In this document: one piece after another, positions 1,797 through 26,902 of the stretch
How the letters are laid out: each line of letters starts with the position of its first letter
Numbering within the stretch: the stretch's first letter is position 1
From: a virus
Taxonomy: Duplodnaviria > Caudoviricetes
Length of the DNA stretch: 64,000 nucleotides
Virus record (IMG/VR): IMGVR_UViG_3300032373_001170
Location: 1 to 64,000 of that record
Reading direction: 5' to 3' (one strand)
Notes under the pieces: model-generated
What the model was told of the DNA's origin: nothing
Seen by the model: the letters and a program-made list of their open reading frames with translations, nothing else
Database searches by the model: none
Made by a program: the position numbers and the translations under genes

Positions 1797-1839
1797 TGTT
1801 TTAATTGTATCGACTTTGCGCAATACGTATATTGCAGTG

Positions 1840-2058
1840 TTATACGGCTTGAGGTTGCTCGACCGCACTCCGCAAATGGCTGATCCTGACTGAGATATCA
1901 TCGCCGTTAAATTTCTCGTTGTAGTCAAGCATTGCGCTAGCCTTGCCGCCAGCGACAACGCCATGCGCCCACGTATCACACTGGGAATTCACTTTCATAG
2001 CAAAGGTTCCTTTTCGAGAGTGATTTACTAAATATGTTTTACCATTTTCTAAATTCAT
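1840..2058 (-). CDS. Hypothetical phage protein (cassette-like)
   Basis: 72 aa; stop TAA lies inside a GTTATAC core (1839-1845). Confidence 0.65.
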   Translation of the reverse strand: MNLENGKTYLVNHSRKGTFAMKVNSQCDTWAHGVVAGGKASAMLDYNEKFNGDDISVRISHLRSAVEQPQAV

Positions 2059-2085
2059 GCTTTTAATCTCCGTAGGTAAATCGCC

Positions 2086-2170
2086 GCATAACCATCAAAA
2101 TCTAGCGGACGGTTATAACGCAGCGTTCTTTTCAGCGGCATACCGCCGCCACTAATTTTGGTAGTTATAG
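2086..2170 (+). repeat. Stacked degenerate attC-like elements
   Basis: GCATAAC 2086-2092..GTTATAA 2112-2118, and TTATAAC 2113-2119..GTTATAG 2164-2170 (58 bp) with inner GCGGC/GCCGC stem. Confidence 0.55.
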
Positions 2171-2248
2171 CGCTCGTCCGGTTCAGCGCTGGCGTAAAGC
2201 TTTTAACCCTAGTGCCAGCTTCTTCGCCGGACGCTACGCTCTCCGGCT

Positions 2249-2818
2249 CTAGTTCCAATAAGCCGAAGGGTTTTCCCAATCAGGGTAATTTTCATTAAGC
2301 CAGCCAGTAGCAACCTTTTGCATTTCTTGCTCAGCCTCCCAGTACTTGTCAGAGTATTGATCACATTCCACTTTGTCGGTTTCGAATACGATGGAGTCGC
2401 CATCAAGAACGCGGTACTGAACATGCTCTTTTGCTTCGTAATCTTGGCGCAGGCAGAAACGACGATCCAAGTTCATGTGAGAACTGCGATCATAGAATGC
2501 CGCCTTATAAAAAATGCTTCCGCGCTTGCGGCCTTGGTCGTCAAGCAAATCACTCCACATCGAATGATCTGTTGGCTTCTTTGTCCATCCTTCAGGGAAT
2601 TGAACGTTAATAAAGATATCGTCGGCATCGTCACCAAAAACAAACCCAAGAGCCTCTAGTGCTTCACGGGGGCATTCTTTCGGCAGGGTTTCATTTGCTA
2701 CAAAGCTTTGCTGTCCGGCGGCTTCCTGGGCTTCGATTCCTCCAGGCGTGGATGCTGCAACAAAGTTATCAAGATCTCCGCTAGCTGCGGCCTGTAGTGC
2801 TGCTGGTGTAGTTTTCAT
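2249..2818 (-). CDS. Conserved-looking hypothetical phage protein (cassette-borne)
   Basis: 189 aa with SD (AGGAG) upstream; lies between cores GTTATAG 2164 and CTATAAC 2849. Confidence 0.8.
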   Translation of the reverse strand: MKTTPAALQAAASGDLDNFVAASTPGGIEAQEAAGQQSFVANETLPKECPREALEALGFVFGDDADDIFINVQFPEGWTKKPTDHSMWSDLLDDQGRKRGSIFYKAAFYDRSSHMNLDRRFCLRQDYEAKEHVQYRVLDGDSIVFETDKVECDQYSDKYWEAEQEMQKVATGWLNENYPDWENPSAYWN

Positions 2819-2848
2819 CGTGGTTCTCCTAGTTAAAGTGTAATCGCG

Positions 2849-2933
2849 CTATAACAAATAGCTACAGCCGACCCACAAACGCGGCGTTCGTTCCTCACTC
2901 TGCGATTGCGGTCGGCTGAGCATGGCGTTATGT
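2849..2933 (+). repeat. attC-like recombination site (85 bp)
   Basis: CTATAAC-AAATA-GCT(A)CAGCCGACC...GGTCGGCTGAGC-ATGGC-GTTATGT: R''/L''/L'/R' layout with one unpaired base in L''. Confidence 0.85.
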
Positions 2934-3134
2934 GGCAAAGCAGGTAAGGCTCACTTCGTCACCGTCAGTGCCTGTCGCTTCAAGTGGCCGCTCCATTCGC
3001 TCGCCACCATCAGTCCCTTCTCTAATAATACACACAGTAACTGGCAAATCGCCGTCAAGCCCAGAAAGGAACTCCCGCAACTCTTTAACATTAAACCCAA
3101 CATCATCATCACTCTCAACTTGTATTGCACACAT
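2928..3134 (-). CDS. Small acidic hypothetical protein (cassette-borne)
   Basis: 68 aa; both ATG and TAA lie within flanking attC core sites. Confidence 0.65.
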   Translation of the reverse strand: MCAIQVESDDDVGFNVKELREFLSGLDGDLPVTVCIIREGTDGGERMERPLEATGTDGDEVSLTCFAT

Positions 3135-3233
3135 AACAATTAGCTCCAGGCGACACCATACCGCGTCGCGTTTTGTGGTTAATTCTAGGCTATGCGGTGC
3201 GCGGTATGGCGCACCTGAGCATGGTCGTTATGT
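3131..3233 (+). repeat. attC-like recombination site (103 bp)
   Basis: ACATAAC-AATTA-GCT(C)CAGG..CCATACCGCG / CGCGGTATGG..CCTGAGC-ATGGTC-GTTATGT; the extra C gives an extrahelical G on the bottom strand. Confidence 0.88.
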
Positions 3234-3545
3234 GACGCTATAAACTTCCCTTTTACCCTCGCTATTTGGCGGAGATACAATTCCGTCTTGCTCCATATTT
3301 TCAATTAATCTAGCTGCTCTATTAAATCCAAGTTTGAATTTACGCTGAATGCCGCTAATAGATGCTCTGTTATTTTCGATAACAAACCTACATGCCTCAC
3401 TGTATTGCTGGCTGTATTCATTATCTGCGCAGGTATCGCATTTGCCGTTATCGGATAGTTTCCCGTGTCGACTGCAAACGCCATTTGCTACAGATAGTAA
3501 TGGAGGGTTGTTAATAGCCTGATTGTTTTGATTTGAGTTGCTCAT
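3228..3545 (-). CDS. Stand-alone FtsK gamma (winged-helix) domain protein
   Basis: YSEACRFVIENNRASISGIQRKFKLGFNRAARLIENMEQDGIVSPPNSEGKREV matches the FtsK-gamma pattern; no motor domain. Confidence 0.85.
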   Translation of the reverse strand: MSNSNQNNQAINNPPLLSVANGVCSRHGKLSDNGKCDTCADNEYSQQYSEACRFVIENNRASISGIQRKFKLGFNRAARLIENMEQDGIVSPPNSEGKREVYSVT

Positions 3546-3551
3546 ATTTAG

Positions 3552-3785
3552 TTACCTAGATAAAGGAAATATCTTAGCTATCTGTACTTCAGTTAATTCC
3601 ACAAAAACCAAATCATCCAGCTTTACATCAATCCATGATCCATCTCCGAATGTTAGCATTTTTTTCGCTGGGTCTAGGGTGCTGCTGCACTCTGCAAATC
3701 CGATCACAGGATGATTTAACCCGTAATTCTCGTGTCCCGTTAACACTGCTGTTACCTCACTCATGATCTTTTCCTCGCTATACAT
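3552..3785 (-). CDS. Hypothetical phage protein
   Basis: 77 aa; start lies in the ACATAAC core at 3782. Confidence 0.6.
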   Translation of the reverse strand: MYSEEKIMSEVTAVLTGHENYGLNHPVIGFAECSSTLDPAKKMLTFGDGSWIDVKLDDLVFVELTEVQIAKIFPLSR

Positions 3786-3810
3786 AACAAATAATTACAG
3801 TAGAGCGCCG
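3782..3810 (+). repeat. Truncated attC-like half site
   Basis: ACATAACAAATAATTACAG resembles the R''/L'' start of the 2849 and 3131 sites; no R' found. Confidence 0.5.
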
Positions 3811-3817
3811 AGTGAGT

Positions 3818-3994
3818 TTATTTGTGAAGAGAATGCGCATGTATGTATTCCTCACCTGCTTTGTTCATTCTGCTATCGAATGTCTCTTTTGTGTCACCAG
3901 ATTTAGTGGCGCATGGTCCTTTTAACGGGCAAGCATTCCCGCAGCTGTGTTGCGAACAAATATTCTTAACTACATCACTTCTATTGTCTTTCAT
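3818..3994 (-). CDS. Small Cys-containing hypothetical protein
   Basis: 58 aa from ATG 3994 (MKDNRSDVV..CSQHSCGNACPLKGPC). Confidence 0.55.
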   Translation of the reverse strand: MKDNRSDVVKNICSQHSCGNACPLKGPCATKSGDTKETFDSRMNKAGEEYIHAHSLHK

Positions 3995-4156
3995 AATGTT
4001 TCTCGATTTCTGCCGCTTCGCTAAAGATAAAAAACGCCGTATTAAATAGGTTAGCACTGACAACACCTTTACCGAACAATACTAAGAGGCCTCGAAGGTG
4101 TTTTGTTTCAGGACTTACAGTGCTCACGCCCTGAGGAAGTGCCTCGCGCTGTATAA

Positions 4157-4519
4157 TTAATCGATGCTTTGTGCCGTTAGAATCGCTCGATTGTGGATGT
4201 GCGGATAGTCTTCACTTAAGTATGTAATCACTACTTCATGCTTTAATAGCTGCCTGAATTCGTCCCAAAGTTTTCTATTAGTAACCTGAAACTCAAATAT
4301 TTCACCACCAACATCGATTTTCCCTACGCCAACTTGTACTACTACGCCGATGACATCAAAGTTAGTCAAGATGCCTTTCCATACTCTCCGTTCATTGTTT
4401 TTCAGCAGTTCCGTTTCATGGTCTTTTTTTAGTTGCTGCCAGCGGTCAAAGCCATAATCATTAGCAGTGATAGCTACGGGCAGTAGGGCGAACATTAGAT
4501 AAAGAATATATATTTTCAT
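4157..4519 (-). CDS. Hypothetical exported protein
   Basis: 120 aa; N-terminal hydrophobic signal-peptide-like stretch. Confidence 0.6.
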   Translation of the reverse strand: MKIYILYLMFALLPVAITANDYGFDRWQQLKKDHETELLKNNERRVWKGILTNFDVIGVVVQVGVGKIDVGGEIFEFQVTNRKLWDEFRQLLKHEVVITYLSEDYPHIHNRAILTAQSID

Positions 4520-4563
4520 TTTTAATCCAGTATATGTGCGTGTGTGTTGCTATTTTTCACCAT

Positions 4564-5058
4564 TTAAACTGCAAGACTATTTGGTTTACTCCGGATTTCA
4601 GAAACTTCTTCATTGCTTAATTCTCTAAGGCCTGGAACCGGTATATATCTGTTTTGCGCATCTTCAGGTACGTTAACTGCCCATTTGTCACCCAAGCGTT
4701 TTAACGAGGCAAAATAAACATTCTTTCCTTCTATAATCGCTTGGGAATTAATTAGTGATCGGAATTCATCAAGCTTGGGGCGCACCATGCTTGCTAACGT
4801 ATGCCGCATAACCTGACCATCTTCAGACGATTCATCGGGGCAGTAATACGGCGGATTTTTATAAGGCTTCCAACCAGGCGGGATCTCACCAGTAAACATG
4901 ACAGCTAAAATTTCCCCGTTTTCTTCAATATATTTGTCAATATCGAGTGATTTCAATATCATCTTTCGTAATGATTCGATCACTTCAAACTCCTTGTAAT
5001 GACTGGTTACGACATTTAGCAAATCGTTTCCTTCAACAGTAAAAAATCTGTAGTTCAT
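4564..5058 (-). CDS. Hypothetical phage protein
   Basis: 164 aa directly downstream of the SbcC-like gene. Confidence 0.7.
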   Translation of the reverse strand: MNYRFFTVEGNDLLNVVTSHYKEFEVIESLRKMILKSLDIDKYIEENGEILAVMFTGEIPPGWKPYKNPPYYCPDESSEDGQVMRHTLASMVRPKLDEFRSLINSQAIIEGKNVYFASLKRLGDKWAVNVPEDAQNRYIPVPGLRELSNEEVSEIRSKPNSLAV

Positions 5059-5069
5059 TTCCGTGCTCC

Positions 5070-7586
5070 CTATTGCTTATAAGCGCTAATATCAATAACT
5101 GCATCAGCCATTTGCCATAGCTCCGGCGTGTGTGAGATAAAAAACTCCTTGTCGTAATCCCCAATCTCAAGCACCTTCCTTTTCATGTTAAAAAATGCGA
5201 GCTTGTTATCCGGATCTAGCGCTCCGTCCAGCTCGTCAGAAAACAATGTTTTTAGCTTTATTGGAGAAAGACTCGCTTGATACAGGGCTATAGCGCGAGT
5301 GATTGCTTCGTTAATCCATACTCGCTGACCTCCCGACATGCATGCGATGTTTTTTTCTGAATCACTTTCGGAATCAAAAACAGTGATTTCAAAAACTTCT
5401 TTCTTTAGCCCGCTTTTCAATGTTTTCTGCGTATCAATTCGAACGCTAAATCTATGTCCGTAACAGGAGACTAATAACTCATTTGTATACGAAGCTAGGG
5501 TAGGGCCTGCATCGTCGATTGATAGCGCTATGATTCCATCAATTCCTAGTGCTGTTTGAAGCTGTGTCCAGATTGCGATTTCATCTTCCAACTTTGTGCC
5601 TAGAGCTTTTAGCTTTTTAGCGCCATACAAAGCCAAAATAACTTGATCCAATTCCGCTTTGGCAGTGGCAATAATGTTATTTTGTTTTTCAATAAAAAGA
5701 TCGAGACTAGCAAGCTCTGTATCTGCTGAGGATAATTCCTTTTCAGCCTGCTCTAGTCCACTAGCCTCGACAGGAGGGGGTAATCGTTTTAATTCGGTTT
5801 CAATACTGGAAATCGCGTTATCTCTTATTATCTGCGCGTCAACTTTTCTCTGATCTAATGCTTTCTTTGCTTCACCTTCGCTAATAACTAGCTGGTTAAT
5901 CTGTATCTCAATTTCTTTGATCGATGAGTTTGCAGTATTGATTAAATCTTTAATGGATGCTTGTGATTCCTGCGCTTTCACAATTAATGATTCGTTATGC
6001 TCTATTACATCCGTAGCGTCATTTAAAGATTCCGTGAGGGCAGTAATTTTATTGTTCTCATCGATATCTGATTGTGCGGTGTCGATCTGTTTTTGTAGTC
6101 TGGTTAATTGCTCTTGGGGATTTCCAAGAGCGGCAATTTCCCCTGTTATTGCCTTAATATCTTTTGCGAACGCTTCATATTCTGTTCTTGCCTTATTTAG
6201 TTCAGCGTTAACTGCGACGCATTGATCTTTCGCTTTGATCGCGTTTTCTAATAGCTTGCAATTGATTTGCATATCGCTACCTTGACAGGGTACTTCGCTG
6301 CACAGCTGCGCTCTAAGCTCATAGTCTTTAAGCTGTTCAGTTTTCGATGTACCTTCCGATGCAAGCTTCTGAGCCTTAACAGCCAGTTCGCTACGCTGAT
6401 CAAAGAGCGCCTGAATTTTAATCACATCTGATCGTAATTTCTCCCGTTCTTTGATAAGGTCAGCTAAAGCCTCATTAAGGCCAGGCGATTTTTGCTGGGC
6501 TGAAATAATCACAGGTTTCTTACAGATTAAATCTTGTTGTCGCTTAATTTGTTGGCTATATCCGGCTATTTGCTGGTCATACGAGCTGGACTGAGTTTTG
6601 TAACTGGCTATCTGACTAGCCAGCCCTTTTATTGCCTTCGCTTTTTGATCTTTTTCGTTTTCGCTTCTATTTCTAAGTGAGTGTATATCCGAATCAACTT
6701 CACTAAATTTATCTTTCAGTTGCTTTTCGGTAAATATTTTACGAGAATCTAAGTCATTTCGGCGTATTTCAACTTCAGTATTTTGATTGTTCTCGGCTTG
6801 TAAATCGGCAACTCTCCGTGTAGCTGCTTGAACTTTATTTCTCGCGATAGGTTGATCAAGCTTGGCCTTATCGAGCATCCTCTCTGCATCGTTTACAGTA
6901 TTCGTTAGTGCACTTTTTTTGGATTCGTTTTCAGCTGCTGCACTAAGATCTGACTGCATCAGAGACAGCTTCATCTGCAGGCCTTTTTTAACGGTGCCAG
7001 CTTTCTGTCCTAACTCAACTACTTGGTTCATGTTTAGCAATTCTGACATTAACGACTTAATATCACCATTGTCATATGTTGATATAGCAGGTCTACCTTG
7101 AGCAGCAAATTGTGAAGTAAAGAACATTTCTGGTGTGCCTAGCAGACTATTTATACAAGCGTCGTATGTTGTTGACTTACCATCGCTCACTAAGCCATTC
7201 TCTGCTGTGAACGGTTCCCAGTTTCCCTCAGCATCCTGGTAAAATAGATATGATTCTGTTTTTTTAGTTCTGTTCGCCCCTTTAATTACAATTGACGATC
7301 GATAGAGAACTCCGTTATCTGAGAAAACGAATTCCTTTTCAGCGTTGCCTATTGTTTCATCGTAATAACTGAATGATCCCGGAGAATAATTTTTCACTTT
7401 TGACGGCATAATGCGGTATGGCTGCATATTATCTATAACTGTTGTTTTCCCAGCACCGTTGTGACCGATTACAGCTATTAATTTTGCGTCGCCAACCAAC
7501 TCTTCAAAGTTCAAATAAAGCTCGTCTCTATTTAAACCGTCCTTGATGCCTATAAAATGTTTTAATCTTACACTTATTGGTAGCAA
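5070..7586 (-). CDS. SbcC/Rad50-like SMC ATPase
   Basis: Walker A GHNGAGKT, long coiled coil with central CSEVPC hook-like motif, signature MSGGQ, Walker B/D-loop FSDELDGALD, H-loop ISH. Confidence 0.92.
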   Translation of the reverse strand: MLPISVRLKHFIGIKDGLNRDELYLNFEELVGDAKLIAVIGHNGAGKTTVIDNMQPYRIMPSKVKNYSPGSFSYYDETIGNAEKEFVFSDNGVLYRSSIVIKGANRTKKTESYLFYQDAEGNWEPFTAENGLVSDGKSTTYDACINSLLGTPEMFFTSQFAAQGRPAISTYDNGDIKSLMSELLNMNQVVELGQKAGTVKKGLQMKLSLMQSDLSAAAENESKKSALTNTVNDAERMLDKAKLDQPIARNKVQAATRRVADLQAENNQNTEVEIRRNDLDSRKIFTEKQLKDKFSEVDSDIHSLRNRSENEKDQKAKAIKGLASQIASYKTQSSSYDQQIAGYSQQIKRQQDLICKKPVIISAQQKSPGLNEALADLIKEREKLRSDVIKIQALFDQRSELAVKAQKLASEGTSKTEQLKDYELRAQLCSEVPCQGSDMQINCKLLENAIKAKDQCVAVNAELNKARTEYEAFAKDIKAITGEIAALGNPQEQLTRLQKQIDTAQSDIDENNKITALTESLNDATDVIEHNESLIVKAQESQASIKDLINTANSSIKEIEIQINQLVISEGEAKKALDQRKVDAQIIRDNAISSIETELKRLPPPVEASGLEQAEKELSSADTELASLDLFIEKQNNIIATAKAELDQVILALYGAKKLKALGTKLEDEIAIWTQLQTALGIDGIIALSIDDAGPTLASYTNELLVSCYGHRFSVRIDTQKTLKSGLKKEVFEITVFDSESDSEKNIACMSGGQRVWINEAITRAIALYQASLSPIKLKTLFSDELDGALDPDNKLAFFNMKRKVLEIGDYDKEFFISHTPELWQMADAVIDISAYKQ

Positions 7587-7634
7587 TGTATTTCCCTCAC
7601 TATTATTTTATTAAACGGTAGTAAATAGCAACCA

Positions 7635-12344: not shown

Positions 12345-13127
12345 ATGATGGCAACGGTAAAAGTAAAAGACTGGCCAAAATGGCAGACATACCGAAAAGA
12401 TCGCGGCACACCACCATGGATAAAAGTGTATCGGAATCTCATGAGCAATCCAGAATGGGCAGATTTAACCGATGCCGAAAAGGGGCAGTTAGTGTCAATG
12501 TGGATTGTAGCCGCAGATAAAGAAGGTGATTTACCTGGTGATTCACGGATTCTACAAAAAATGTGCATGCTTGATGAGCAGCCAAACGTCAACAGATTCA
12601 TTGACTTAAAGTTCTTAATGCGAGTCGGTTGCCAAAGTGACGCCAGAGTGACAACAGATGGTCACCCCAAAGGTGTCGAGCTGCCAACCAAAAACAAGCA
12701 AAGTGACGCACCAGAGACAGAGACAGAGACAGAGACAGAGACAGAGACAGAGACAGATAAAAACACTACCTCGCCAAAAGAAATTGACGAGAAGGATTTG
12801 GAAGTTGCTACGCACATTTATAATGGACTTCTAAGAATCAACCCGAAGCATGACAAGCCAAATTACACTGCATGGGCCAAAGATGTTCGATTAATGCGAG
12901 AAAGAGATAGGCGGACGCATGACGAAATTAAAAATCTATTTGATTGGGCAAATAATGATTCGTTTTGGCAGACAAATATTCTTTCACCGTCAAAACTTCG
13001 GAAACAATGGAATCAACTGACTATCAAGCGAGGTGTGTCAAAAAATAATAAGCACAGTGGCTTTAAGGAAAGGGATTATTCACAAGGAACAGATGAACTC
13101 AAAGACCCTAAATGGGCTGAAGAATGA
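12345..13127 (+). CDS. Phage replication initiator (lambda O-like C-terminus)
   Basis: N-terminal WIKVYR..EWADLTDAEKGQL; C-terminal WANNDSFWQTNILSPSKLRKQW; followed by a DnaC-like ATPase. Confidence 0.85.
   Translation: MMATVKVKDWPKWQTYRKDRGTPPWIKVYRNLMSNPEWADLTDAEKGQLVSMWIVAADKEGDLPGDSRILQKMCMLDEQPNVNRFIDLKFLMRVGCQSDARVTTDGHPKGVELPTKNKQSDAPETETETETETETETDKNTTSPKEIDEKDLEVATHIYNGLLRINPKHDKPNYTAWAKDVRLMRERDRRTHDEIKNLFDWANNDSFWQTNILSPSKLRKQWNQLTIKRGVSKNNKHSGFKERDYSQGTDELKDPKWAEE
12633..12709 (+). other. Putative origin iterons within the initiator gene
   Basis: CAAAGTGACGC at 12633 and 12699, plus related AGTGACA and inverted GTCAC between them. Confidence 0.45.
12714..12755 (+). repeat. (GAGACA)7 tandem repeat encoding (ET)7
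   Basis: Seven exact hexamer units, in frame. Confidence 0.95.
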
Positions 13128-13762
13128 GTACCGCCTTGAGTCAGAAAACTAAAAACGAGTCTCCTGCTGATGATTATAAAAGGCGTGAGCTTTTTAGAAA
13201 TGCAGAGATCCCGGTTAGATTTAAAGGTAAAGACTTTGATAGCTACTTACCCACATGTGAAGGAGGAAAAAAGGCCCTTAGAATTTCGAAAAGCTTCGCG
13301 GGAAGTTTTAGTGATCGTTTGGCGTGTGGGGATGGGTTGATATTTTTTGGGAAAACGGGAACTGGGAAAACTCATTTAAGCTGCGCTATTGCTAGTTACA
13401 TCATTCGTGAATTTGGTTATTCAGTTTTATTTACCGAAGTGCTAGAGATGACGAGGCAAATTAAAGAAACATATAGAAGAGACACGGCACAGACTGAGCG
13501 TGAAGTGATGCGAAAATTCTGCCGCCCAAGCCTGCTTATACTGGATGAGGTTGGAATGCAATTCGGTAGCGATGCAGAAAAAGTCATCGTGTCAGATATT
13601 ATAAATATAAGATATAAGCGCGTAAAATCAACAATATTGGTTAGTAACTTAACACTGAGTGAGCTAGAAGCGTGTGTTGGTGATCGTGGTGTAGATCGCA
13701 TGTACGAAGGCGGCGGGGTGATTATTCCATTTGACTGGGGTAGTTACCGACGTGGATCTTAA
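13124..13762 (+). CDS. DnaC/IstB-like helicase loader ATPase
   Basis: GKTGTGKT Walker A, LLILDEVG Walker B, TILVSNL, GDRGVDRM. Confidence 0.9.
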   Translation: MSTALSQKTKNESPADDYKRRELFRNAEIPVRFKGKDFDSYLPTCEGGKKALRISKSFAGSFSDRLACGDGLIFFGKTGTGKTHLSCAIASYIIREFGYSVLFTEVLEMTRQIKETYRRDTAQTEREVMRKFCRPSLLILDEVGMQFGSDAEKVIVSDIINIRYKRVKSTILVSNLTLSELEACVGDRGVDRMYEGGGVIIPFDWGSYRRGS

Positions 13763-16515: not shown

Positions 16516-16782
16516 ATGTTTATAGCAGAAGCGATAGAAATCATGACAAGACCTGTAACAATATTTGAATACTGGAGGCCGGACGATGCTGAGTATGATG
16601 ATTCATATCAGAAGCGTGAAATGGGAAAGGGTGTTTTCCATGAGTTCGGTGTTAGCTACGAAAATGTTGGCGATAGCGTGGGTAACTATTCAACCGCGAT
16701 TATTGAACTACCAAATGGACAAATTGTTAATGAGCCTGTTGAAATGATTCAATTTGATGACAAAGGTAAGGAAAATGGCTAA
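16516..16782 (+). CDS. Hypothetical phage protein
   Basis: 88 aa from ATG 16516; overlaps the ssb start. Confidence 0.65.
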
Positions 16783-17239
16783 AGGTGTAAATAAGGTGAT
16801 TTTGGTTGGCAACATAGGTGGTGATCCGGAGGTTCGTTATACTCCCGGCGGAAGTGCTGTCGCAAACGCAACAATAGCAACTAGTGATACCTGGAAAGAC
16901 AAAAATACTGGGCAAAAGCAGGAGCGCACTGAATGGCATCGGGTTGTGTTCTTTAATCGTCTAGGGGAGATAGCAGGCGAGTATTTAAAGAAAGGATCAA
17001 AGGTTTATGTGGAAGGAAGTTTGCGAACACGCAAGTGGCAAGATAAAAATGGTCAAGATCGGTACACGACTGAAATAGTTGGTAGTGAAATGCAAATGCT
17101 TGATTCAAAAAGTGGCTCTCAAGCGGGCACAGGCAGTCCAGCAGGTAGTTATCAGCATTCCCCGAATAATAGAGCCCCATCACCGGAGCCAGTGGCCGCA
17201 GCAGACTATTCTGATTTTGATGACGATATTCCTTTCTAG
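16775..17239 (+). CDS. ssb: Single-stranded DNA-binding protein
   Basis: [43 protein letters not shown]; C-terminal DFDDDIPF. Confidence 0.97.
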
Positions 17240-17283
17240 ACGGAATATCATAGACTAGTTGTTTAATTAATCACAGGACTTGA

Positions 17284-17934
17284 ATGATGCTAAGAAAGTT
17301 AACCAAGCAAATGAAATCGGAACTTTTTCAATTGATTGCGATGAAACTCGTGAGATCTGAAGTTGAAGAGTATGAACACTCAATTAAAGTACTAGCTGAC
17401 GCGCTATGGGAATGGAAATACAAAAAAGATATAGACATTATTACGACTCTCCCTGACGGGTTCATGCGCACTTGCAGCTGCGCAAACCTAGCGCACATCG
17501 ATTTTCTAGTAATAAATATAAACCAAATAACAAATTGTTATATGCCAGAAAAACTAAGTAATAGCTCTTCTAGTTGGGCACATACCACAAATTCAATTTC
17601 GTTTACTTCAAAAAAACGTGTTAAGCGTGATGATCAATATAGTGTGTCCATTGCCGCACATGAGCTACCAAAAAGCTTAATGAATCGCATTGATAAAATG
17701 AAAAAGAAGTCGGAGGTCCTGCGAGATAAAATTAGTAGTCTCATGGTGGAGCTGAAAGGCGTTATACAGTCTAGCAAAACTATAAAAGATTTGAGAGAAA
17801 TACTGCCAGAATTTAGTGAGTTTTATCCTTCCGATAATGCGGATAGTTTTCCTGTAATTTCCGTTTCAGCGGACAATATTCAATCCGCTGCTAGAAAATG
17901 GGCAAAAAATAACGCTGCCACATCAGCTCAATAG
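17284..17934 (+). CDS. Nmad5-like phage protein
   Basis: 216 aa; RKLTKQMK start and VIQSSKTIKDLREILPEF end resemble Nmad5 (by eye). Confidence 0.45.
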   Translation: MMLRKLTKQMKSELFQLIAMKLVRSEVEEYEHSIKVLADALWEWKYKKDIDIITTLPDGFMRTCSCANLAHIDFLVININQITNCYMPEKLSNSSSSWAHTTNSISFTSKKRVKRDDQYSVSIAAHELPKSLMNRIDKMKKKSEVLRDKISSLMVELKGVIQSSKTIKDLREILPEFSEFYPSDNADSFPVISVSADNIQSAARKWAKNNAATSAQ

Positions 17935-17942
17935 ATCCGTAA

Positions 17943-19052
17943 ATGGAGTGTGACATGATTGGATTTAATGTAGGTGATTTACTTAACTCTCTTAATGTAG
18001 TTGGTTTGGCGAAACCATCAAGGGAGGTGATACCTATTCTCGGTAATGTTTATATTAATTATGGTGCCAATTCACATTTGCTAGTAACAGATATGGATGT
18101 TCAGTTAGCTAGCCGAATTGATATCTCTCGCAGTGATTTAAGTGGTAGCTTGTTGCTACCACTTGGTAAGCTAGTTGGCATTTGTAAAGTGCATGATAAG
18201 AGTGAAGATGGGGTTATCAATATCGGGGCCAATAATCTCTCTATTCGAATAGGTGTGGGGCGATATACGTTTAATAAAGTTTCTCCTGATGATTTTCCTG
18301 TCCAGGTTTCAAGAGAGGATGAGGAGTCGCTGTGTCCAAGTATATCATCACCGCTTATGAAAAAATGCGTGCAACTCGTCGAGCATGCTCAAGCAATCAA
18401 TGACGTTAGATACTATCTCAACGGGATTCACTTTGAGGTTATTGATAACGTTATGCATGTAGTAGCAACCGACGGACATCGCTTAGCCTATTTTAGGATG
18501 GATGTGGATATGAAAAACACTAATTTCACAGTGCCGAAAAAAGGAGTTGAGGTTTTAAAAAAAGCACTTGACCAGGAGGAGCAAGTGGAGATCAAGGTTG
18601 GAAATAAAAGCATTGAGATTGTCGGGGAACAGGTATCCGCAAGATCAAATCTAGTGGATTGCCGGTACCCTGATTACAGGCAATTTTTTAAGCAGAAAGG
18701 CGACTTAAAGGTGCTTGTGAAAAGAGCAGATCTGGTCAATGGCTTAAGACGAGCTGTTATTATTTTGGATCTCAAGAGACGAGCTATCAAACTCACGTTT
18801 GACAAAGACAAGATAGAAATATTTGCCACGAATGCTGCAGGCGAAACGGCTGACGATGATGTGCCGTGCTCGATGAGTAAGAATATAAAGCTGGAGCGTG
18901 GTTTTAATCCAGAGTACATCCTTGATGCGATCAGTGTTATCGGCTCAGAAAACATTGAGATGTGGATAGATCCCAATAGTGATAGCGGTCTAGTTATTAT
19001 GGGTGAGGGCGATGAATCATACGCTGCGGTAGTGATGCAGATGCGATTGTAG
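17943..19052 (+). CDS. dnaN: DNA polymerase III beta sliding clamp homologue
   Basis: PILGNV, DVRYYLNGIHF, VATDGHRLA, YPDYRQ, GFNPEYILDAI, VVMQMRL. Confidence 0.92.
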   Translation: MECDMIGFNVGDLLNSLNVVGLAKPSREVIPILGNVYINYGANSHLLVTDMDVQLASRIDISRSDLSGSLLLPLGKLVGICKVHDKSEDGVINIGANNLSIRIGVGRYTFNKVSPDDFPVQVSREDEESLCPSISSPLMKKCVQLVEHAQAINDVRYYLNGIHFEVIDNVMHVVATDGHRLAYFRMDVDMKNTNFTVPKKGVEVLKKALDQEEQVEIKVGNKSIEIVGEQVSARSNLVDCRYPDYRQFFKQKGDLKVLVKRADLVNGLRRAVIILDLKRRAIKLTFDKDKIEIFATNAAGETADDDVPCSMSKNIKLERGFNPEYILDAISVIGSENIEMWIDPNSDSGLVIMGEGDESYAAVVMQMRL

Positions 19053-19501: not shown

Positions 19502-19513
19502 TTTGAAAATTTT

Positions 19514-20102: not shown

Positions 20103-20351
20103 ATGAATATTTACGACAGTCAAAAGTGGGGCGTTTACATTGCTGGCCCAGGGAATGTGTTAGCAGCGAATACATTTGAGGAAGCTACAGAAAAAGCGGC
20201 AGAATTAAACAAGATAGTTGTTGACCACATAAAATCAAATTATTCAGGCGGCAACTACCCCATTGTTTTTGCTAATGTTGATAGATGGGAAAATATATCA
20301 AAGTTCGAGCACAGCCCAAGCGAAACAGATTGGGAAAATGCGTTTTCGTAA
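20103..20351 (+). CDS. Hypothetical phage protein
   Basis: 82 aa; stop lies in a TAAC core-like context. Confidence 0.65.
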   Translation: MNIYDSQKWGVYIAGPGNVLAANTFEEATEKAAELNKIVVDHIKSNYSGGNYPIVFANVDRWENISKFEHSPSETDWENAFS

Positions 20352-20378
20352 CGCATCTATATGGATAAGGACTAGAGC

Positions 20379-20558
20379 ATGCCCGTGATAAATGTAGAGT
20401 GTCAAAATGAAGAATGCACAAAATATAATGATTACGAATGCGAGTGGGAATCCTGTGCCGAAGGCTCCACTCATGTTTGCGAATGTGATTGCGGGACTAA
20501 AGCGCAATTCACTATCAGTTACCCGGATCCAATTGCTGATGAAGAGCAAGCAATTTAG
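20379..20558 (+). CDS. Small Cys-rich acidic protein (Zn-ribbon-like)
   Basis: 59 aa MPVINVECQNEEC...CECDCG; fills the gap exactly; below the track cutoff. Confidence 0.55.
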   Translation: MPVINVECQNEECTKYNDYECEWESCAEGSTHVCECDCGTKAQFTISYPDPIADEEQAI

Positions 20559-20598
20559 TTTTGGCGTATAGGCTGTATTTATGCAAACAGAGGATCCT

Positions 20599-21342: not shown

Positions 21343-21374
21343 TGTGAATTTTAGATATTAGTTTTATAAAAGGA

Positions 21375-21719
21375 TTGAAAATGAAAGCATCAGTTAAAGT
21401 AATGAGATCGTATGACTACAATCATTTCGAAGTATCATTGTCTTCTGAAGAAGTTTCATCTTTAGAAGAGGTGGACGATCTGAGAAAGAGTGCTGCCAGA
21501 CTAGTTGATAAGGCCGTCATTCAATATCAAACCTCCAAAAACCATGCGTTAAGAATTCCGGATCAAGAGTTATCTAGGCAAGCAAAAATAATTACGGAGA
21601 ATCATCCGAAATCTGAGTGGACAGAAGAGCAAAAAGCGATAATCAAAAAGCATGAAGATGATATGTACTGGTCTAATCGAATATTTGATTATGAAGACGA
21701 GTGGGATGTAGATAATTAG
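21375..21719 (+). CDS. Hypothetical phage protein
   Basis: 114 aa ORF in operon. Confidence 0.65.
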   Translation: MKMKASVKVMRSYDYNHFEVSLSSEEVSSLEEVDDLRKSAARLVDKAVIQYQTSKNHALRIPDQELSRQAKIITENHPKSEWTEEQKAIIKKHEDDMYWSNRIFDYEDEWDVDN

Positions 21720-21741
21720 ACGAGCGCCAGCGGGAAAGATA

Positions 21742-21999
21742 ATGAGTGCTGTCACTGATAAGGGTGGAAGTATAGGTGATGTTTGTGGTGTGGAGTGTCC
21801 AGCGTGGGTGATGTTTGGCGGTGAGCGCTATGATTACTGCCGAGAAGCTTATTACGAAGATATAGGTGGAGTGCTACGCTGCCAGATGACCGATGGAGAA
21901 ATTCACCTGTCTCCTGGAGTGGTTTACAGAAAAGCTGACAAAAACACTGAAGCGCCATGCTGCGCTGGTGAGTGTGAATACTGTATTGGCGACTATTAA
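21742..21999 (+). CDS. Hypothetical phage protein
   Basis: 85 aa, Cys-rich C-terminus. Confidence 0.55.
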   Translation: MSAVTDKGGSIGDVCGVECPAWVMFGGERYDYCREAYYEDIGGVLRCQMTDGEIHLSPGVVYRKADKNTEAPCCAGECEYCIGDY

Positions 22000-22038
22000 T
22001 AAGCCAGGTTTAAAGGGGAGACATAAAGGAGATGCAAT

Positions 22039-22245
22039 TTGAAAATTAGCAAAGTTATTGAGCGATTGGAGCAAGTGAAAAAAGCTGAAGGAGATATCGA
22101 AGTAACAGGAACATCATCGTTTTTACCGGATGGATACAGCCGAGATGACGGGCCTATTGCTGATGTATTTGAAAGTACCATTGAGAATTTCGTGATTGTG
22201 AATGATTCATCGGGATTAGGTCGCAGAGTTAGGCTGTTTTTATAG
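22039..22245 (+). CDS. Hypothetical phage protein
   Basis: 68 aa; SD AAGGAG upstream. Confidence 0.6.
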   Translation: MKISKVIERLEQVKKAEGDIEVTGTSSFLPDGYSRDDGPIADVFESTIENFVIVNDSSGLGRRVRLFL

Positions 22246-22267
22246 CGCGACGCTAGGTATTGAGTGA

Positions 22268-22771
22268 TTGCTATATTTTTGGAGAATTCAGTTGATAACA
22301 AATAGCTACCAGCCAACTCATCGTCAATTGTGTGATAGAGCAGCTTATTGGTTGCAACAAAGCAGAAATTGTAAGCTGGTTTTAGTGGAGCGAAATTCTG
22401 GAATGGGCGGTGAAGAGCCTGACGCTATTGGATGGACACCTTGCGGGTATAGCTATTTAGTTGAAGCTAAAGTATCGAGAGCTGATTTTTTAGCTGACGC
22501 TAAAAAGCCTCACCGAAAAAAACCACAAAGTGGAATGGGAAAAAGTCGCTTTTTACTGTGCCCTAAAGGAATGATTCAACCTGAAGAAACGCCTGAAGGC
22601 TGGGGTTTGCTCTGGGCTACTGAGCATCAAATTAGGCTTAAAAATCACGACGATTTGGTTAACAAAGGTGAATTCGAGATTGATCAAAAAAAGGAAATGC
22701 AAATGCTTATCCATTCTTACCGAATGGTAAAGCTTGGCGTGATGATTGTGCCGATTGGAAACGAAATTTGA
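22268..22771 (+). CDS. PD-(D/E)xK nuclease-like (MmcB-like) protein
   Basis: EEPDAIGW..YLVEAKVSRADFLAD.KKPHR..PEGWGLL; start uncertain. Confidence 0.65.
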   Translation: MLYFWRIQLITNSYQPTHRQLCDRAAYWLQQSRNCKLVLVERNSGMGGEEPDAIGWTPCGYSYLVEAKVSRADFLADAKKPHRKKPQSGMGKSRFLLCPKGMIQPEETPEGWGLLWATEHQIRLKNHDDLVNKGEFEIDQKKEMQMLIHSYRMVKLGVMIVPIGNEI

Positions 22772-22830
22772 AGACAATAGATTTCTCAAGATACCGAGAA
22801 CCGTTATTTTAACAATCCGAGACCGAAAAC

Positions 22831-23334
22831 ATGAGTGAAACCGCCAATCTAGAATCAAGAAGTGCATTAGCTGCTACCAGAGAAGATGTTGTCATATCGC
22901 CCTGCTCTATGACTACATCACAAAACGAAAATGACGTAGCTGAAGGTCAATCCGTCTCTAAGCCATTGCTAGATTTTGCCTACTCATTGGACGACGAAAG
23001 ATATACAGATTTTGAAAGTATCGTGGACGAAGTTAATTCCGATTATCCAGCAGGTAAAGCAGTGATAATAAGCAAAGGCGAAAAAATACAATACTCTCAC
23101 AGTGATTTCATCAACATCGATGTATTTTTTGAGCTTTTGAATGAAGCAGCTTACGAGGAATGCGGGGAGTATGGCGAAGACTATATGTGCAAAGTAGATA
23201 AAGAAAAGCGCGATGAGCTGAAAAAGATTATATCAGAATGGTTGGGTGAGAATTTTGAAGCGCCCAACTTCTTTACTGTTAAAAACATAACAAAAATGGA
23301 AGTGGTTGCTGTTTGCGCGCCAGAAACTAAATGA
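22831..23334 (+). CDS. Acidic hypothetical phage protein
   Basis: 167 aa ORF. Confidence 0.65.
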   Translation: MSETANLESRSALAATREDVVISPCSMTTSQNENDVAEGQSVSKPLLDFAYSLDDERYTDFESIVDEVNSDYPAGKAVIISKGEKIQYSHSDFINIDVFFELLNEAAYEECGEYGEDYMCKVDKEKRDELKKIISEWLGENFEAPNFFTVKNITKMEVVAVCAPETK

Positions 23335-23690
23335 ATAAAGAAGTGCTGGACTGCATAGATCGGCTGAAGGAGGTGTTCCCGAAATCGTTTATTTACAAGA
23401 ATGACGAGCTGATAGTTGAGCCGAAGAACAATATCTACTTCCGAATTGATGACGTGGAAAGTGAAATCGATTTTAAGTGCAAGATTGTCGAATGGCTATC
23501 TAGGCCAGCACACAAAGGGCTTAGCAAGTGGTGGCAAAGTAGAATTAGAAGCGGGATGAATAAGTTTCTCGGGACAGCGTTCACGCCTGAAGAAATGAGC
23601 ACAATTTACACCCACCTTGGATGCTGCTGCAATCGACAAAAAACAAAGGTCTTTATCTTATCTGGATACGATGTTGGTACATTGGCATAA
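23331..23690 (+). CDS. Hypothetical phage protein
   Basis: 119 aa; stop lies in GCATAAC core. Confidence 0.7.
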   Translation: MNKEVLDCIDRLKEVFPKSFIYKNDELIVEPKNNIYFRIDDVESEIDFKCKIVEWLSRPAHKGLSKWWQSRIRSGMNKFLGTAFTPEEMSTIYTHLGCCCNRQKTKVFILSGYDVGTLA

Positions 23691-23810
23691 CGGTTTAGCT
23701 TACTCGTGCTGTGCGAACTGGAGATTAAACGATGGCAACTGAAACAAGAGAACAACCAAGCAACAGCGAAACGTCGATACGTAGCGTTGATGTAGAGCCT
23801 GCTGTAATGC
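23685..23810 (-). repeat. Degenerate attC-like element
   Basis: GCATAAC-GGTTTAGCT...GTAGAGCCTGCT-GTAATGC (core one mismatch from GTTATGC); contains the SD and ATG of the next gene. Confidence 0.5.
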
Positions 23811-24016
23811 CTACCGCTCATCAGGGCGCAGCGGTTGGAGCACTCAGGATCGCACTGTTGGCGATGGATGAAGCACAGAGACATATCGAAAGCCACTATC
23901 TAAATGACCTGATTTTAAATCGAACCGACTATATTGAGAAACAAGCAGAACTCAACAATATGCGCTTAGCAGCAGCCGAAGCATTAAAGCCTATGTGGAA
24001 AATTGTTGAGGTGTAA
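23732..24016 (+). CDS. Hypothetical phage protein
   Basis: 94 aa; starts inside the attC-like element; stop lies in GTGTAAC. Confidence 0.6.
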   Translation: MATETREQPSNSETSIRSVDVEPAVMPTAHQGAAVGALRIALLAMDEAQRHIESHYLNDLILNRTDYIEKQAELNNMRLAAAEALKPMWKIVEV

Positions 24017-24042
24017 CGTCGCAACTAACAGGAAACAAGCAC

Positions 24043-24237
24043 ATGAGTATTCAGCCCTGGAAACACCCTCCATTAAATGAATGGTCTATTTGCGGAATGA
24101 ACCACTACCACGTTGACGGTGAAAAACGCTTATTTGTATCAATGACAAAAGATGGTAAATGCATTACTGAAGAAGGTGCTGACAACGAATATTTATGGAA
24201 TCGCCTTTGGCATAAAGCTGATATGGGGAGAAAATAA
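24043..24237 (+). CDS. Hypothetical phage protein
   Basis: 64 aa; stop overlaps the next start (TAATG). Confidence 0.65.
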   Translation: MSIQPWKHPPLNEWSICGMNHYHVDGEKRLFVSMTKDGKCITEEGADNEYLWNRLWHKADMGRK

Positions 24238-24515
24238 TGTCAAACACAATACCACCAATAACAAACCCATTAGGGAAACACTGGCAGCAACCCAAGGTCA
24301 GCGAAATTGAAATTGATGATAAATATGCAGTAATGGAAAAGAGTGCATTCAATAAGTTACTTGAGTATTCAACATCAACACCATCTGGTGTGTATATCGG
24401 CAAAATGTGGAAGGGTCAGTACTCAAATGGAAAATGGTATCTAGCTTGGTTTAGTAAAGGTGATGATGCTGGAACGTACTTGAACAATAACTATAGAATT
24501 ATATTAGGCGTATAA
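24237..24515 (+). CDS. Hypothetical phage protein
   Basis: 92 aa; stop lies in GTATAAC core. Confidence 0.7.
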   Translation: MSNTIPPITNPLGKHWQQPKVSEIEIDDKYAVMEKSAFNKLLEYSTSTPSGVYIGKMWKGQYSNGKWYLAWFSKGDDAGTYLNNNYRIILGV

Positions 24516-24580
24516 CAAATAAGCTCATTTGTTGCGAACGATGTACGAGTGAATAATAAATGTGAAGCGCCTGGTTATGG
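24510..24580 (-). repeat. attC-like site (71 bp)
   Basis: Minus strand CCATAAC-CAGGC-GCTTCACATTTATTA...CAACAAATGAGC-TTATTT-GTTATAC. Confidence 0.75.
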
Positions 24581-24594
24581 CGCGTGGAGGAATA

Positions 24595-25500
24595 ATGACA
24601 CAGATTAACCGAACTGGAAGGGTTGTTTTTGGCGATGTCTCTTTGAGTGTATGGGAAGAAGGGCTTGGCGGGTCATTGCAAGAGCGCGCAGCCTGGGAAA
24701 AGTCTTTTAAAAGACAGGTATTCAAGCGGATCATTCAAACATTAAACCGCATAGGTTGGAAATGCGTTATCCCTCAGGATGACATTGATCAGTATGGCCA
24801 GCGATTTGCTGAGGGACGACGCTACTGTGTCAAGGGTAATCTGAAAGCCGACTTATCTATTGCAGGCAGGCACATCGAGCTCAAGATGTTCCAGAATACT
24901 AATGCCCCTGATCGCCCAGACCATGAAGGGCGCTATCAGTTCGATAAAGAGAGGCACATGCCTTACGTAATGCGCCTGGAGATGGAGCGATCCAGGCGGA
25001 AGATTAAAGCTTATTTGTGCAATGTATTCTCCGGGTATGAGTTTAAATCTGATAAAAATGATGGGCGATCAAATAAATGCGGACCAAGTCACATGACAGC
25101 GATGGAATGGCTTGACGGGTGCTACAAGACAAGCTGTCACTTTAAAGGCGACCTAACTACATATCAAATTAGTAACTACAACAGAAAGTCAGCTAATGAC
25201 ACTTTATTGAAGCATGGCCAGCGCGTCTGGTTTGCTGATCGAAAAGGGAGAATTTGCACCGGTATTGCTTACTACAACATTAATAATATGTGGTGGGTGA
25301 TAACTGGGAAATACGATCATACAAACATGGGCTCACACAAACTCTTCACCGTACAACCTGAGAACATTCGGCAGAAGCGGAATGAAAGACAGAGAGAGGC
25401 AAAACTAAAGAACCTATTAGCTGAATCAGTAGAAGCTATGAAATTCGAGCGATCCGTACAACTGCGTGATCTATTGTATCCGGCTGCGATAGCGCCATAA
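24595..25500 (+). CDS. Hypothetical phage protein (cassette-borne)
   Basis: 301 aa from ATG 24595 with SD GGAGG; bounded by GTTATGG and CCATAAC. Confidence 0.8.
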   Translation: MTQINRTGRVVFGDVSLSVWEEGLGGSLQERAAWEKSFKRQVFKRIIQTLNRIGWKCVIPQDDIDQYGQRFAEGRRYCVKGNLKADLSIAGRHIELKMFQNTNAPDRPDHEGRYQFDKERHMPYVMRLEMERSRRKIKAYLCNVFSGYEFKSDKNDGRSNKCGPSHMTAMEWLDGCYKTSCHFKGDLTTYQISNYNRKSANDTLLKHGQRVWFADRKGRICTGIAYYNINNMWWVITGKYDHTNMGSHKLFTVQPENIRQKRNERQREAKLKNLLAESVEAMKFERSVQLRDLLYPAAIAP

Positions 25501-25556
25501 CACCCGGCAATAAAGCGCCGACGCTTAAGGAGGTCGCGTTGATTGCTTGGTTATAC
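25495..25556 (-). repeat. attC-like site (62 bp)
   Basis: Minus strand GTATAAC-CAAGCAATCAACGCGAC..GTCGGCGCTTTATTGCCGGGT-GTTATGG. Confidence 0.82.
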
Positions 25557-26274
25557 GAATTTTGAGGAAGATAATATGAGAGACTATTTTTATCAAATCA
25601 AAGGAAAGGACTCTAGCGAATACGCGAATTCCCCCTGGGCTTGGCCTCCTCTATTTTGCGGAAAAGTATCCGCTCAAGACAAAAAGGAAGCTAAGCTAAT
25701 TATTGAAGAAGAATACTGTAGAAAATTCCCTCTTAGAGTGCTTCGTAAAGATTTGGAGCAGAATCATTACCTGCTAAATATACGGGAGATAGCTGAGAAC
25801 GACCAGCGGACCCGCGATCTTTTTAATTCTAACGAATGCCAGCAGTGCGGCAAGAAGTTTAGACGAATCGATCTTTACAATGACCATAACGAATCATATA
25901 AAGGTAGCGAATACTGCAGTCAAGAATGCAAGCAGACTTATCTTGAATTAAATCGTGTTGTTGAGTTGGATGTGACCGGGAATGGTAAGCCGGTAATATA
26001 CCGAATACGCAACATCAAAACTGATATGTCCTATGTAGGTAAAACCACTCAAGTATTTACATTACGTTGGTACCAACATTTCTACCAAGGAGGAGCTTGT
26101 AAGTTTCATCAAGCTATAAAAGATTCAAATCTCGACGAATGGGAATTTAGAATTCTGGAAATAGTGGATATATCGGATGCGGCTTGTCGAGGTCAACTAA
26201 TCGCTGATAGAGAGCGTTTCTGGATTAAAACATTAGACACTATTGAATGCGGCTATAACAGTGCATTCGTATAA
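25543..26274 (+). CDS. GIY-YIG nuclease-domain protein with Cys-rich linker (cassette-borne)
   Basis: VIYRIRN..SYVGKT..RWYQH..EFRILE..ERFWI..GYN; CQQC and CSQEC motifs; start TTG 25543 or ATG 25576. Confidence 0.82.
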   Translation: MLGYTNFEEDNMRDYFYQIKGKDSSEYANSPWAWPPLFCGKVSAQDKKEAKLIIEEEYCRKFPLRVLRKDLEQNHYLLNIREIAENDQRTRDLFNSNECQQCGKKFRRIDLYNDHNESYKGSEYCSQECKQTYLELNRVVELDVTGNGKPVIYRIRNIKTDMSYVGKTTQVFTLRWYQHFYQGGACKFHQAIKDSNLDEWEFRILEIVDISDAACRGQLIADRERFWIKTLDTIECGYNSAFV

Positions 26275-26396
26275 CGAAAAACGTAACCTGTTCACTACCG
26301 TAACTTTGAACAGGTAAACGACGATGAATTTTAACCAAGGCAAGCACCACAACGAAACCACGCGGTAGTGAATCTGCGTTGACGTGCTTGTTATAT
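26269..26396 (-). repeat. attC-like site (128 bp)
   Basis: Minus strand begins ATATAAC-AAGCACGTCAACGCAGA; 10-bp inner stem TTCACTACCG/CGGTAGTGAA; ends GTTATAC. Confidence 0.82.
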
Positions 26397-26419
26397 TTTT
26401 TGAGGTGTGAGGGTGATTA

Positions 26420-26662
26420 ATGATTACTGATAAAATCGAAATATTACACAAGGCCGTGCTAGATGGTTTTGAAGTCAGGCAGTTTGGCCGAAACAACAAC
26501 CCGCACATAAGAGCCGAATTGCAAAATTTTAGTACAGGGGAAACCATAGAGTGTAGCTCTAAAGCAGTCTTGGAGCTTGAGCGAGATAATATGCTAATTC
26601 TAGATTGCTGCGCTGGTGGATCTGAATATGCTCTACAGCCTGCATTTAGAAAAGGAGATTGA
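26420..26662 (+). CDS. Hypothetical phage protein
   Basis: 80 aa; SD GAGG upstream. Confidence 0.6.
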   Translation: MITDKIEILHKAVLDGFEVRQFGRNNNPHIRAELQNFSTGETIECSSKAVLELERDNMLILDCCAGGSEYALQPAFRKGD

Positions 26663-26665
26663 GCA

Positions 26666-26851
26666 ATGCCAACTTACCAAATTGAAAGAGATATCACAGA
26701 AGCCAACGGGACTCAGACATTTACAGTCGAGGCAGAAAATGAATTCGAAGCAAGGGAGAAGTTTGCAGACGGCGCCGGCAAATTGATCGACGAGGAGCTG
26801 AATGCCGAAGGGTTAGAACCCGTAGACACATGTGAAGTTTACGAAATATAA
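26666..26851 (+). CDS. Small acidic hypothetical protein
   Basis: 61 aa; stop lies in ATATAAC 26846-26852. Confidence 0.65.
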   Translation: MPTYQIERDITEANGTQTFTVEAENEFEAREKFADGAGKLIDEELNAEGLEPVDTCEVYEI

Positions 26852-26902
26852 CTAATATTAAAACGCATAAATGCGGATATACACTGCTTTGAGGAGATTT
26901 GT

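Follow-up and report, generated by a model that had tools for sequence, protein, structure and literature searches.

How does a temperate phage that encodes no integron integrase come to carry rows of attC-like hairpins between the small genes of both of its early arms? This question is raised by IMG/VR provirus record IMGVR_UViG_3300032373_001170, of whose 79.7 kb we analyzed bases 1-64000 (hereafter the window), and the host of this phage is an uncultured marine gammaproteobacterium. Our analysis indicates that the two clusters of hairpins are very probably genuine integron-type cassette arrays, i.e., clusters of attC sites lacking integron integrases (CALINs), in a lambdoid prophage, with an integron integrase (IntI) of the host probably making the crossover in trans.

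Judged by sequence and covariance model, and at four of them by fold as well, six intergenic hairpins of the window are attC sites. Three of them, at 2085, 2848, and 3130, lie on the + strand and form a left array, and three, at 24510, 25495, and 26269, lie on the - strand and form a right array. True attC sites for the analysis were taken from annotated integrons in phage and genomic-island records. A first covariance model, R1, consisted of class 1 integron attC sites only (aadA1, aadA2, psp, qacH, orfF, and cmlA1). Run with filters off, its best two matches in the window were 2848-2933(+), with 35.5 bits (E = 2.6e-8), and 3130-3233(+), with 27.8 bits (E = 7e-6). Both scores lie above the 11-17 bits that R1 assigns to true Vibrio and Shewanella attC sites, a range that led us to reject R1 as the sole model on the grounds that it is too narrow. 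Model R2 was derived from an alignment of the motif of 2848 and 3130 and also recognizes class 1 attC sites of the aadA type (30-37 bits). Model R3 was built from R2 matches in loci other than the window and was then run on the window with filters off. Its top eight matches there were the six sites plus two reverse-strand echoes, and none of the rest fell below an E-value of 0.3. R3 recovers the experimentally validated attC sites of phages TJE1 and H101, and it returned 0 matches both in 1.17 Mb of phage loci with a related large terminase (TerL) and in 0.5 Mb around homologs of a 189-aa gene of the left array. No Rfam family matched the window. Since MAFFT misaligned long attC sites, the models were taken from two alignments only (A2 and A4). 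A scan with a hand-written attC grammar was dropped as unspecific, as it gave 15 matches versus about 18 in shuffled sequence.

The anatomy of the sites is consistent with this assignment. All six carry inverted core boxes at their two ends, NNATAAC for R'' (consensus RYYYAAC) and GTTATNN for R' (consensus GTTRRRY), and the R3 alignments place 2085, 24510, 25495, and 26269 in attC geometry, with a spacer of 7 nt in 25495. The consensus design consists of R'', a 5-nt spacer, 3 bp, one extrahelical base in L'' (column 19), a stem, and then L' and R'. Site 2848 resembles attC_cmlA1 on visual inspection, and 2848 and 3130 align with attC_cmlA1, attC_estX, and seven sites of other viral contigs; within this alignment compensatory changes were found in 8 of 18 pairs. 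Eight viral contigs and 37 metagenome contigs contain a 21-nt motif common to 2848 and 3130, the exact form of which is absent from 401 sampled Gammaproteobacteria genomes and from five genomes with a related TerL. Folded as single-stranded DNA (ssDNA), 2085, 2848, 3130, and 26269 gave z scores of -2.6 to -3.6, the minimum-energy fold of 26269 being two hairpins rather than one.

The second line of evidence comes from the junctions. In an array built by IntI, the R'' box of a cassette pairs with the bases at the start of its own cassette and not with the R' box of its own hairpin. Exact complements were found at all six cassettes (2164/2849, 2927/3131, 3227/3782, 24574/25495, 25550/26269, and 26390/26846). 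Within single hairpins, the outer positions are matched at 2/4, 2/4, 4/4, 3/4, 2/4, and 2/4, so that five of six hairpins have mismatched ends of their own. To the left of these pairs, the R'' box at 2086 would have its partner in GTTATGC at 1549, inside an open reading frame (ORF). To judge how often such pairing arises by chance, the boxes of 35 sites were pooled, which gave a match probability of 0.096 for a random R''/R' pair. Among adjacent pairs at most 1.4 kb apart in five phages, 10 of 19 are perfect (P = 2.6e-6), and when the present phage is excluded 6 of 15 are (P = 0.002), with replication in three other attC-bearing phages, G001, G002, and G003. At two more junctions of G002 the four variable positions match and the core is mutated. 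The chain rule also holds at 5/5 positions in L257, a 5.8-kb phage-like contig (JGI 3300033388), and in true integron arrays carried by G081, the host relative described below. By their sequence, then, the cassette boundaries bear the scar that would be expected of IntI crossover at G|TT in R'. To our knowledge, only a crossover inside R' produces such a chain.

These results bear on a prediction made earlier from the DNA letters of the window. It had named five well-formed hairpins (2849, 3131, 24510, 25495, and 26269), all of which are true attC sites by R3 and the first two also by R1, but it had missed the sixth good site at 2085. Its six R''/R' pairs were borne out in full. The mismatch of own ends that it described is likewise real, but the count is now five of six hairpins rather than four of five. 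The covariance-model search that it proposed came out in favor of the sites, with R1 at E = 2.6e-8 and 7e-6 and R3 at E = 0.006 or better for all six.

We then considered which enzyme could have made these junctions. The sole tyrosine recombinase of the record is the product of the integrase gene at 1-1056, a divergent enzyme with one weak match to PF00589, and no serine recombinase was found in the record. The 79.7-kb record contains no match to TIGR02249, the IntI family; the integrase falls into no NCBIfam family and gives E = 0.45 in BLASTP against the IntI of G081. By these comparisons it is not an integron integrase. With 3 + 3 attC sites and no integron integrase in 79.7 kb, the clusters classify as CALINs and not as complete integrons, since no intI gene adjoins either array. 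Other phages are in the same position. Portal, protease, RecT, helicase, and methyltransferase genes mark G001, G002, G003, and G005 as real phages; each carries 4-8 sites of the same attC family and none has a tyrosine recombinase, so a host enzyme is needed.

Such an enzyme is at hand in the lineage of the host. A longer contig (L163) supplies the host flank of the prophage, with tRNAs, folD, a Ser/Thr kinase gene, and a gene for a Sel1-caspase protein. The insertion adjoins a tRNA-His/tRNA-Arg/tRNA-Pro cluster upstream of folD (12883-13166 of that contig), and the site is empty in two related metagenome-assembled genomes (MAGs; L166 and L167). G081 (GCA_945787715.1), a MAG within our Gammaproteobacteria class sample, is the nearest public genome with this tRNA-folD-kinase synteny; it lacks the prophage and its FolD is 88% identical. 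It carries four intI genes above the curated 265-bit cut-off and a truncated fifth, as well as at least 16 attC sites that score 35-55 bits with R3, some of them directly beside intI. Four intI genes and a truncated fifth are unusually many for a genome of 4.4 Mb. Because the phage lacks IntI while G081 has several intI genes and attC sites of the same family, a host IntI acting in trans is plausible and appears to be the economical explanation.

The arrays differ from bacterial cassettes in one consistent respect, their polarity. On the left, + strand sites face - strand genes, and on the right, - strand sites face + strand genes, so that the attC top strand runs antisense to the genes in either arm. 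This placement was agreed upon by all three models with margins of 10-27 bits. The attC strand is opposite to the genes for the FtsK-gamma, GIY-YIG, phrog_7674, and 189-aa proteins, and the cassettes thus do not have the canonical orientation. Read along transcription, each unit is a hairpin followed by a gene, which is the reverse of class 1, Vibrio, Shewanella, and G081 cassettes. Across 41 sites in nine viral records, 23 are antisense, 6 are sense, and 12 are mixed by crude ORF calls. All five sites of L257 are antisense, as are the three attC sites of phage H101 (NC_029094, 76228-77987), which are on the + strand with gp133-gp135 on the - strand; the array of TJE1 has sense polarity. Orphan DNA methyltransferase genes adjoin antisense attC sites in two other phages, G001 (L119, 3304-4275) and G005 (L120, 8811-9830), and echo the methyltransferase cassettes described by Qi et al. 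2023 (PMC9892861).

On the remaining points the original prediction was in the main supported. Its statement that the window holds no integron integrase and a single, phage-type recombinase agrees with our results. A search for intI, which it proposed for the host or the full contig, found none in the full record and 4-5 in the related G081. It assumed canonical cassette polarity, which proved wrong in both arms. Its suggestion that accessory genes are shuffled through a host IntI in trans is plausible in view of the intI genes and attC sites of G081, but ongoing shuffling was not seen, all assemblies being identical. It was correct that attC sites in phages had already been published (PMC9892861).

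Is this a mobile system today? The genes in the cassettes are of phage type: they encode a phrog_7674 protein, an endonuclease-like GIY-YIG protein, an FtsK-gamma protein, and small proteins without assigned function. Among the 1478 homologs of the 189-aa gene, the closest available context is that of L257, which carries a 66%-identical copy together with its five antisense attC sites at 2474-4782. There an antisense attC stands directly upstream of the gene, the neighbors are unrelated, and nucleotide similarity to the window stops at the R'' box. This recurrence of the cassette is a hint of mobility, and the sole comparative one. None of the cassette proteins of the window is common to the other attC-bearing loci. 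The TerL and SbcC-like searches yielded no close relative of the prophage for mapping insertions and deletions: TerL relatives are at most 80% identical and lack attC sites, and the SbcC-like protein has no relatives among viral contigs. Neither megablast of 25 kb nor blastn of site 3130 found a match among 50,697 named phages.

Several observations weigh against cassette arrays worked by a host IntI. R2 and R3 descend from a motif derived from the window, leaving R1 and the validated-site control as the only fully independent support, and the E-values of these models are rough. Folding as ssDNA is weak at 24510 (z -0.5) and moderate at 25495 (z -1.3), and the sites at 3781 and 26846 are remnants only. 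In their unexplained antisense polarity, the genes would not be expressed from an integron Pc promoter, which would make exchange with bacterial integrons unproductive. The intI genes are known from a relative of the host and not from the host itself. No attC lies near any of eighty other viral homologs of the 189-aa gene. Lastly, no cassette-level polymorphism was seen in five independent assemblies, each covering one arm or the other and each 100% identical to the window.

The identity of the assemblies has two sides. Several ENA, JGI, and Logan samples yielded identical array stretches in independent assemblies, which rules out an assembly artifact. At the same time, the lack of variation favors the most credible of the alternatives, which we nevertheless regard as doubtful, namely that the arrays are fossils, built in the past by IntI-type assembly in an ancestor or another element and now inherited as inert intergenic DNA. 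The weak folds at 24510 and 25495 and the remnants at 3781 and 26846 also favor it, and because of them a part of the attC system can be said to be decaying. However, four sites still score and fold well, the 7-mer chain is perfect at all six junctions, the host lineage has several intact intI genes, and the similar sites of H101 recombine in assays (PMC9892861).

That a different recombinase works on the sites, either the phage integrase or a Xer-like enzyme, is very improbable. With 1 kb between the integrase gene and the left array, the geometry is integron-like, and an integrase on the - strand followed by attC sites with a + top strand mimics the layout of intI and its array. Yet the integrase, whose gene is located at a tRNA attachment site, is unrelated to the IntI and Xer families, the right array lies inverted at a distance of 24 kb, and G001, G002, G003, and G005 share the attC family with no tyrosine recombinase. 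We consider it likewise very improbable that the phage captured the arrays as fragments of a chromosomal integron of its host, through illegitimate recombination or imprecise excision, as Vibrio anguillarum phages did. Captures of this kind are documented (PMC9892861) and the host lineage has many attC sites of the same family, whereas here two separate arrays lie deep in the prophage, each antisense to phage transcription, with phage-type genes (phrog_7674, GIY-YIG, and FtsK-gamma), and the arrays of the host lineage are sense. Finally, it is very improbable that the hairpins only resemble attC and serve the phage in regulation, as terminators or as RNA processing sites of early operons, for although they lie between early genes and show a U-rich stretch after the stem when read antisense (e.g., TATTTGTTAT), and although attC sites are thought to act as weak terminators (PMC9892861), a simple terminator scan calls none of them and an RNA role leaves both the 7-mer chain, which runs across genes and not hairpins, and the homology to class 1 attC sites unaccounted for.

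If the clusters are cassette arrays served by an integron integrase of the host, as we favor, a sequence of events can be proposed. The crossover would be made in trans by the IntI of an integron-rich host lineage. intI genes are typically controlled by LexA, and under such control intI and the prophage would be induced at the same time. A single gene with its attC could then be excised as a circle and inserted at resident attC sites of co-resident phages, prophages, or integrons. The cassette genes of the present arrays are presumably transcribed from early promoters of the phage. With the antisense polarity, the bottom strand, which is the one that recombines, would coincide with the non-template strand and, given a replication origin between the arms, also with the lagging-strand template. 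We tentatively suggest that phages of integron-rich marine Gammaproteobacteria keep a backwards cassette pool of their own, in which attC sites lie upstream of and antisense to the genes and their bottom strand, being both non-template strand and lagging-strand template, folds best during infection or induction. Such phages might use the SOS-induced IntI of the host to swap accessory and anti-defense genes, which would be a source of mosaicism apart from the bacterial pool; this broader proposal is speculative.

If correct, the proposal would give part of phage mosaicism a defined site-specific mechanism, notably in early and accessory regions with anti-defense genes such as orphan methyltransferases, and would make attC recombination one currency common to integrons and phages. 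Illegitimate or homologous recombination, and not site-specific crossover at attC, is the usual explanation for the joints in lambdoid mosaics. The inverted polarity, which the present phage has in common with the validated phage H101, one metagenome contig, and the majority of sites in eight other viral records, leads to a testable prediction as to which strand and which process, transcription or replication, lets attC fold. The mirrored arrays flanking the replication region, together with a host lineage with multiple intI genes, provide a convenient template for tests with cloned sites.

The novelty of these findings is limited because attC clusters in phages have been published. Qi et al. 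2023 described 17 phage CALINs and found that 5 of 6 tested sites recombine, and attC sites of TJE1 and H101 recombine with attI1 under IntI1 (PMC9892861). The published phage CALINs have 2-3 sites in one cluster, and inverted polarity and the junction scar are not discussed there (PMC9892861). In contrast, the present phage is a temperate lambdoid with two mirrored arrays flanking an immunity and replication region. New in the present case are this pair of mirrored arrays, the scar made explicit at the junctions, the systematic inversion of polarity, and the link to a host lineage with multiple intI genes. The closest parallel is Pseudoalteromonas phage H101, whose attC sites also lie between small phage genes that are antisense to them, with no intI; its sites score 34-38 bits with R3, and the chain rule is obeyed at one of its two junctions. 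With class 1 and sedentary chromosomal integrons the arrays share the R''-5 nt-L'' arrangement with its extrahelical base, the L'-5/6 nt-R' arrangement, and the junction scar, and 2848 and 3130 are closely related to attC_cmlA1 and attC_estX. They differ from classical integrons in having no intI, genes antisense to the attC top strand, and phage-type cassette genes; neither an attI site nor a Pc promoter was identified, although no search with an attI model was made. The integrons of G081 have the same attC family and follow the same chain rule, but their intI genes lie beside the arrays, their cassettes are canonical and sense, and the exact 21-nt motif of 2848 and 3130 is absent from G081.

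The setting of the arrays is that of a lambdoid genome. From the integrase gene a leftward arm with SbcCD-like genes follows, then a replication initiator gene at 12345(+) and a long rightward arm, in which the gene for the large terminase at 27876 precedes portal and tail genes. The sign of the GC skew flips at about 9-10 kb, between the two arms. In the leftward arm, the left array takes up the accessory region near int, and in the rightward arm, the right array immediately precedes the terminase genes. We take these to be the usual lambdoid hot spots for morons and accessory genes (the b/ea region near int and the stretch ahead of the terminase genes), and, as at those hot spots, the arrays hold small, presumably non-essential genes. 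The features of both arrays, with the recombinase loci, are listed in the table.

Table. Features of the two attC arrays, the phage integrase, and intI loci of the host relative G081, with R3 scores (E-values approximate)
Feature	Position	Strand	R3 bits	R3 E-value	Remarks
Tyrosine integrase, phage-type	1..1056	-			phrog_1, E = 1.5e-28; adjoins host tRNA-His/Arg/Pro cluster
attC D	2085..2170	+	32.2	5e-5	Leftmost full site of left array; R'' GCATAAC, R' GTTATAG; R2 17.7 bits; bottom strand one hairpin, z -2.6
189-aa cassette gene	2249..2818	-			Function unassigned; cassette 2165-2927, ending with attC A
attC A	2848..2933	+	57	7e-11	R'' CTATAAC, R' GTTATGT; near attC_cmlA1; fold z -2.6
68-aa ORF	2928..3134	-			Within cassette 2928-3227; also called as a 68-aa gene in independent assemblies
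attC B	3130..3233	+	73	1.4e-14	R'' ACATAAC, R' GTTATGT; fold z -3.4
Two-gene cassette	3228..3785	-			FtsK-gamma domain protein 3228-3545 and 77-aa ORF 3552-3785
Decayed attC C	3781..3830	+	11.5		R''-L'' half kept; R'' ACATAAC pairs with R' at 3227; 3' half degenerate; R2 10.1 bits; neither score significant alone
attC E	24510..24581	-	23.1	0.006	Last site of right array; on - strand R'' CCATAAC, R' GTTATAC; R3 12.3 bits on +
301-aa cassette gene	24595..25500	+			Phage protein family, function unassigned; phrog_7674, E = 2e-104
attC F	25495..25557	-	23.1	0.006	R'' GTATAAC, R' GTTATGG; R3 10.6 bits on +; R1 12.7 bits on -
232-aa cassette gene	25576..26274	+			GIY-YIG homing-endonuclease-like; PF01541; phrog_314, E = 1.2e-8
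attC G	26269..26397	-	38.1	2e-6	R'' ATATAAC, R' GTTATAC; no R3 match on +; fold z -3.6
Two small cassette genes (80 aa and 61 aa)	26420..26851	+			61-aa product phrog_10718, E = 1.3e-5
Orphan R box ATATAAC	26846..26852				Closes chain with GTTATAT at 26390; no full attC after it; no model match
intI loci of G081	C66:20803-21741, C202:482-1420, C34:34642-35583, C220:1587-2333, C184:1-600				

With regard to the cassette genes themselves, the FtsK-gamma protein matches PF09397 (E = 9.5e-26) and an FtsK/SpoIIIE-like PHROG, and homologs of the 301-aa protein are found in Vibrio, Cronobacter, Bordetella, Microcystis, and Sinorhizobium phages. The 68-aa ORF has no family match, and an alternative ORF of 73 aa is present on the + strand of the same cassette, which makes its coding strand a candidate assignment.

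A few further features of the window should be noted. A weak attC-like match at 23685-23811(-) (15.6 bits, E = 0.34) has a mutated R'' core and lies off the cassette chain; it was not counted and may be an older decayed attC site. At 17524-17544, an AT-rich perfect palindrome (ATAACAAATTGTTAT-like) is weakly matched by all three attC models on both strands, has no stem-loop between its boxes, and might be an operator or an origin element. Pfam matches at 16754-19052(+) mark a phage-encoded single-stranded DNA-binding protein, a protein of the Nmad5 family, and a DNA polymerase III beta clamp. Farther downstream, 41416-47295(+) encodes a 1959-aa protein with matches to DNA methyltransferase, helicase, and DarB-like antirestriction proteins, which from these matches looks like a large injected anti-restriction protein.

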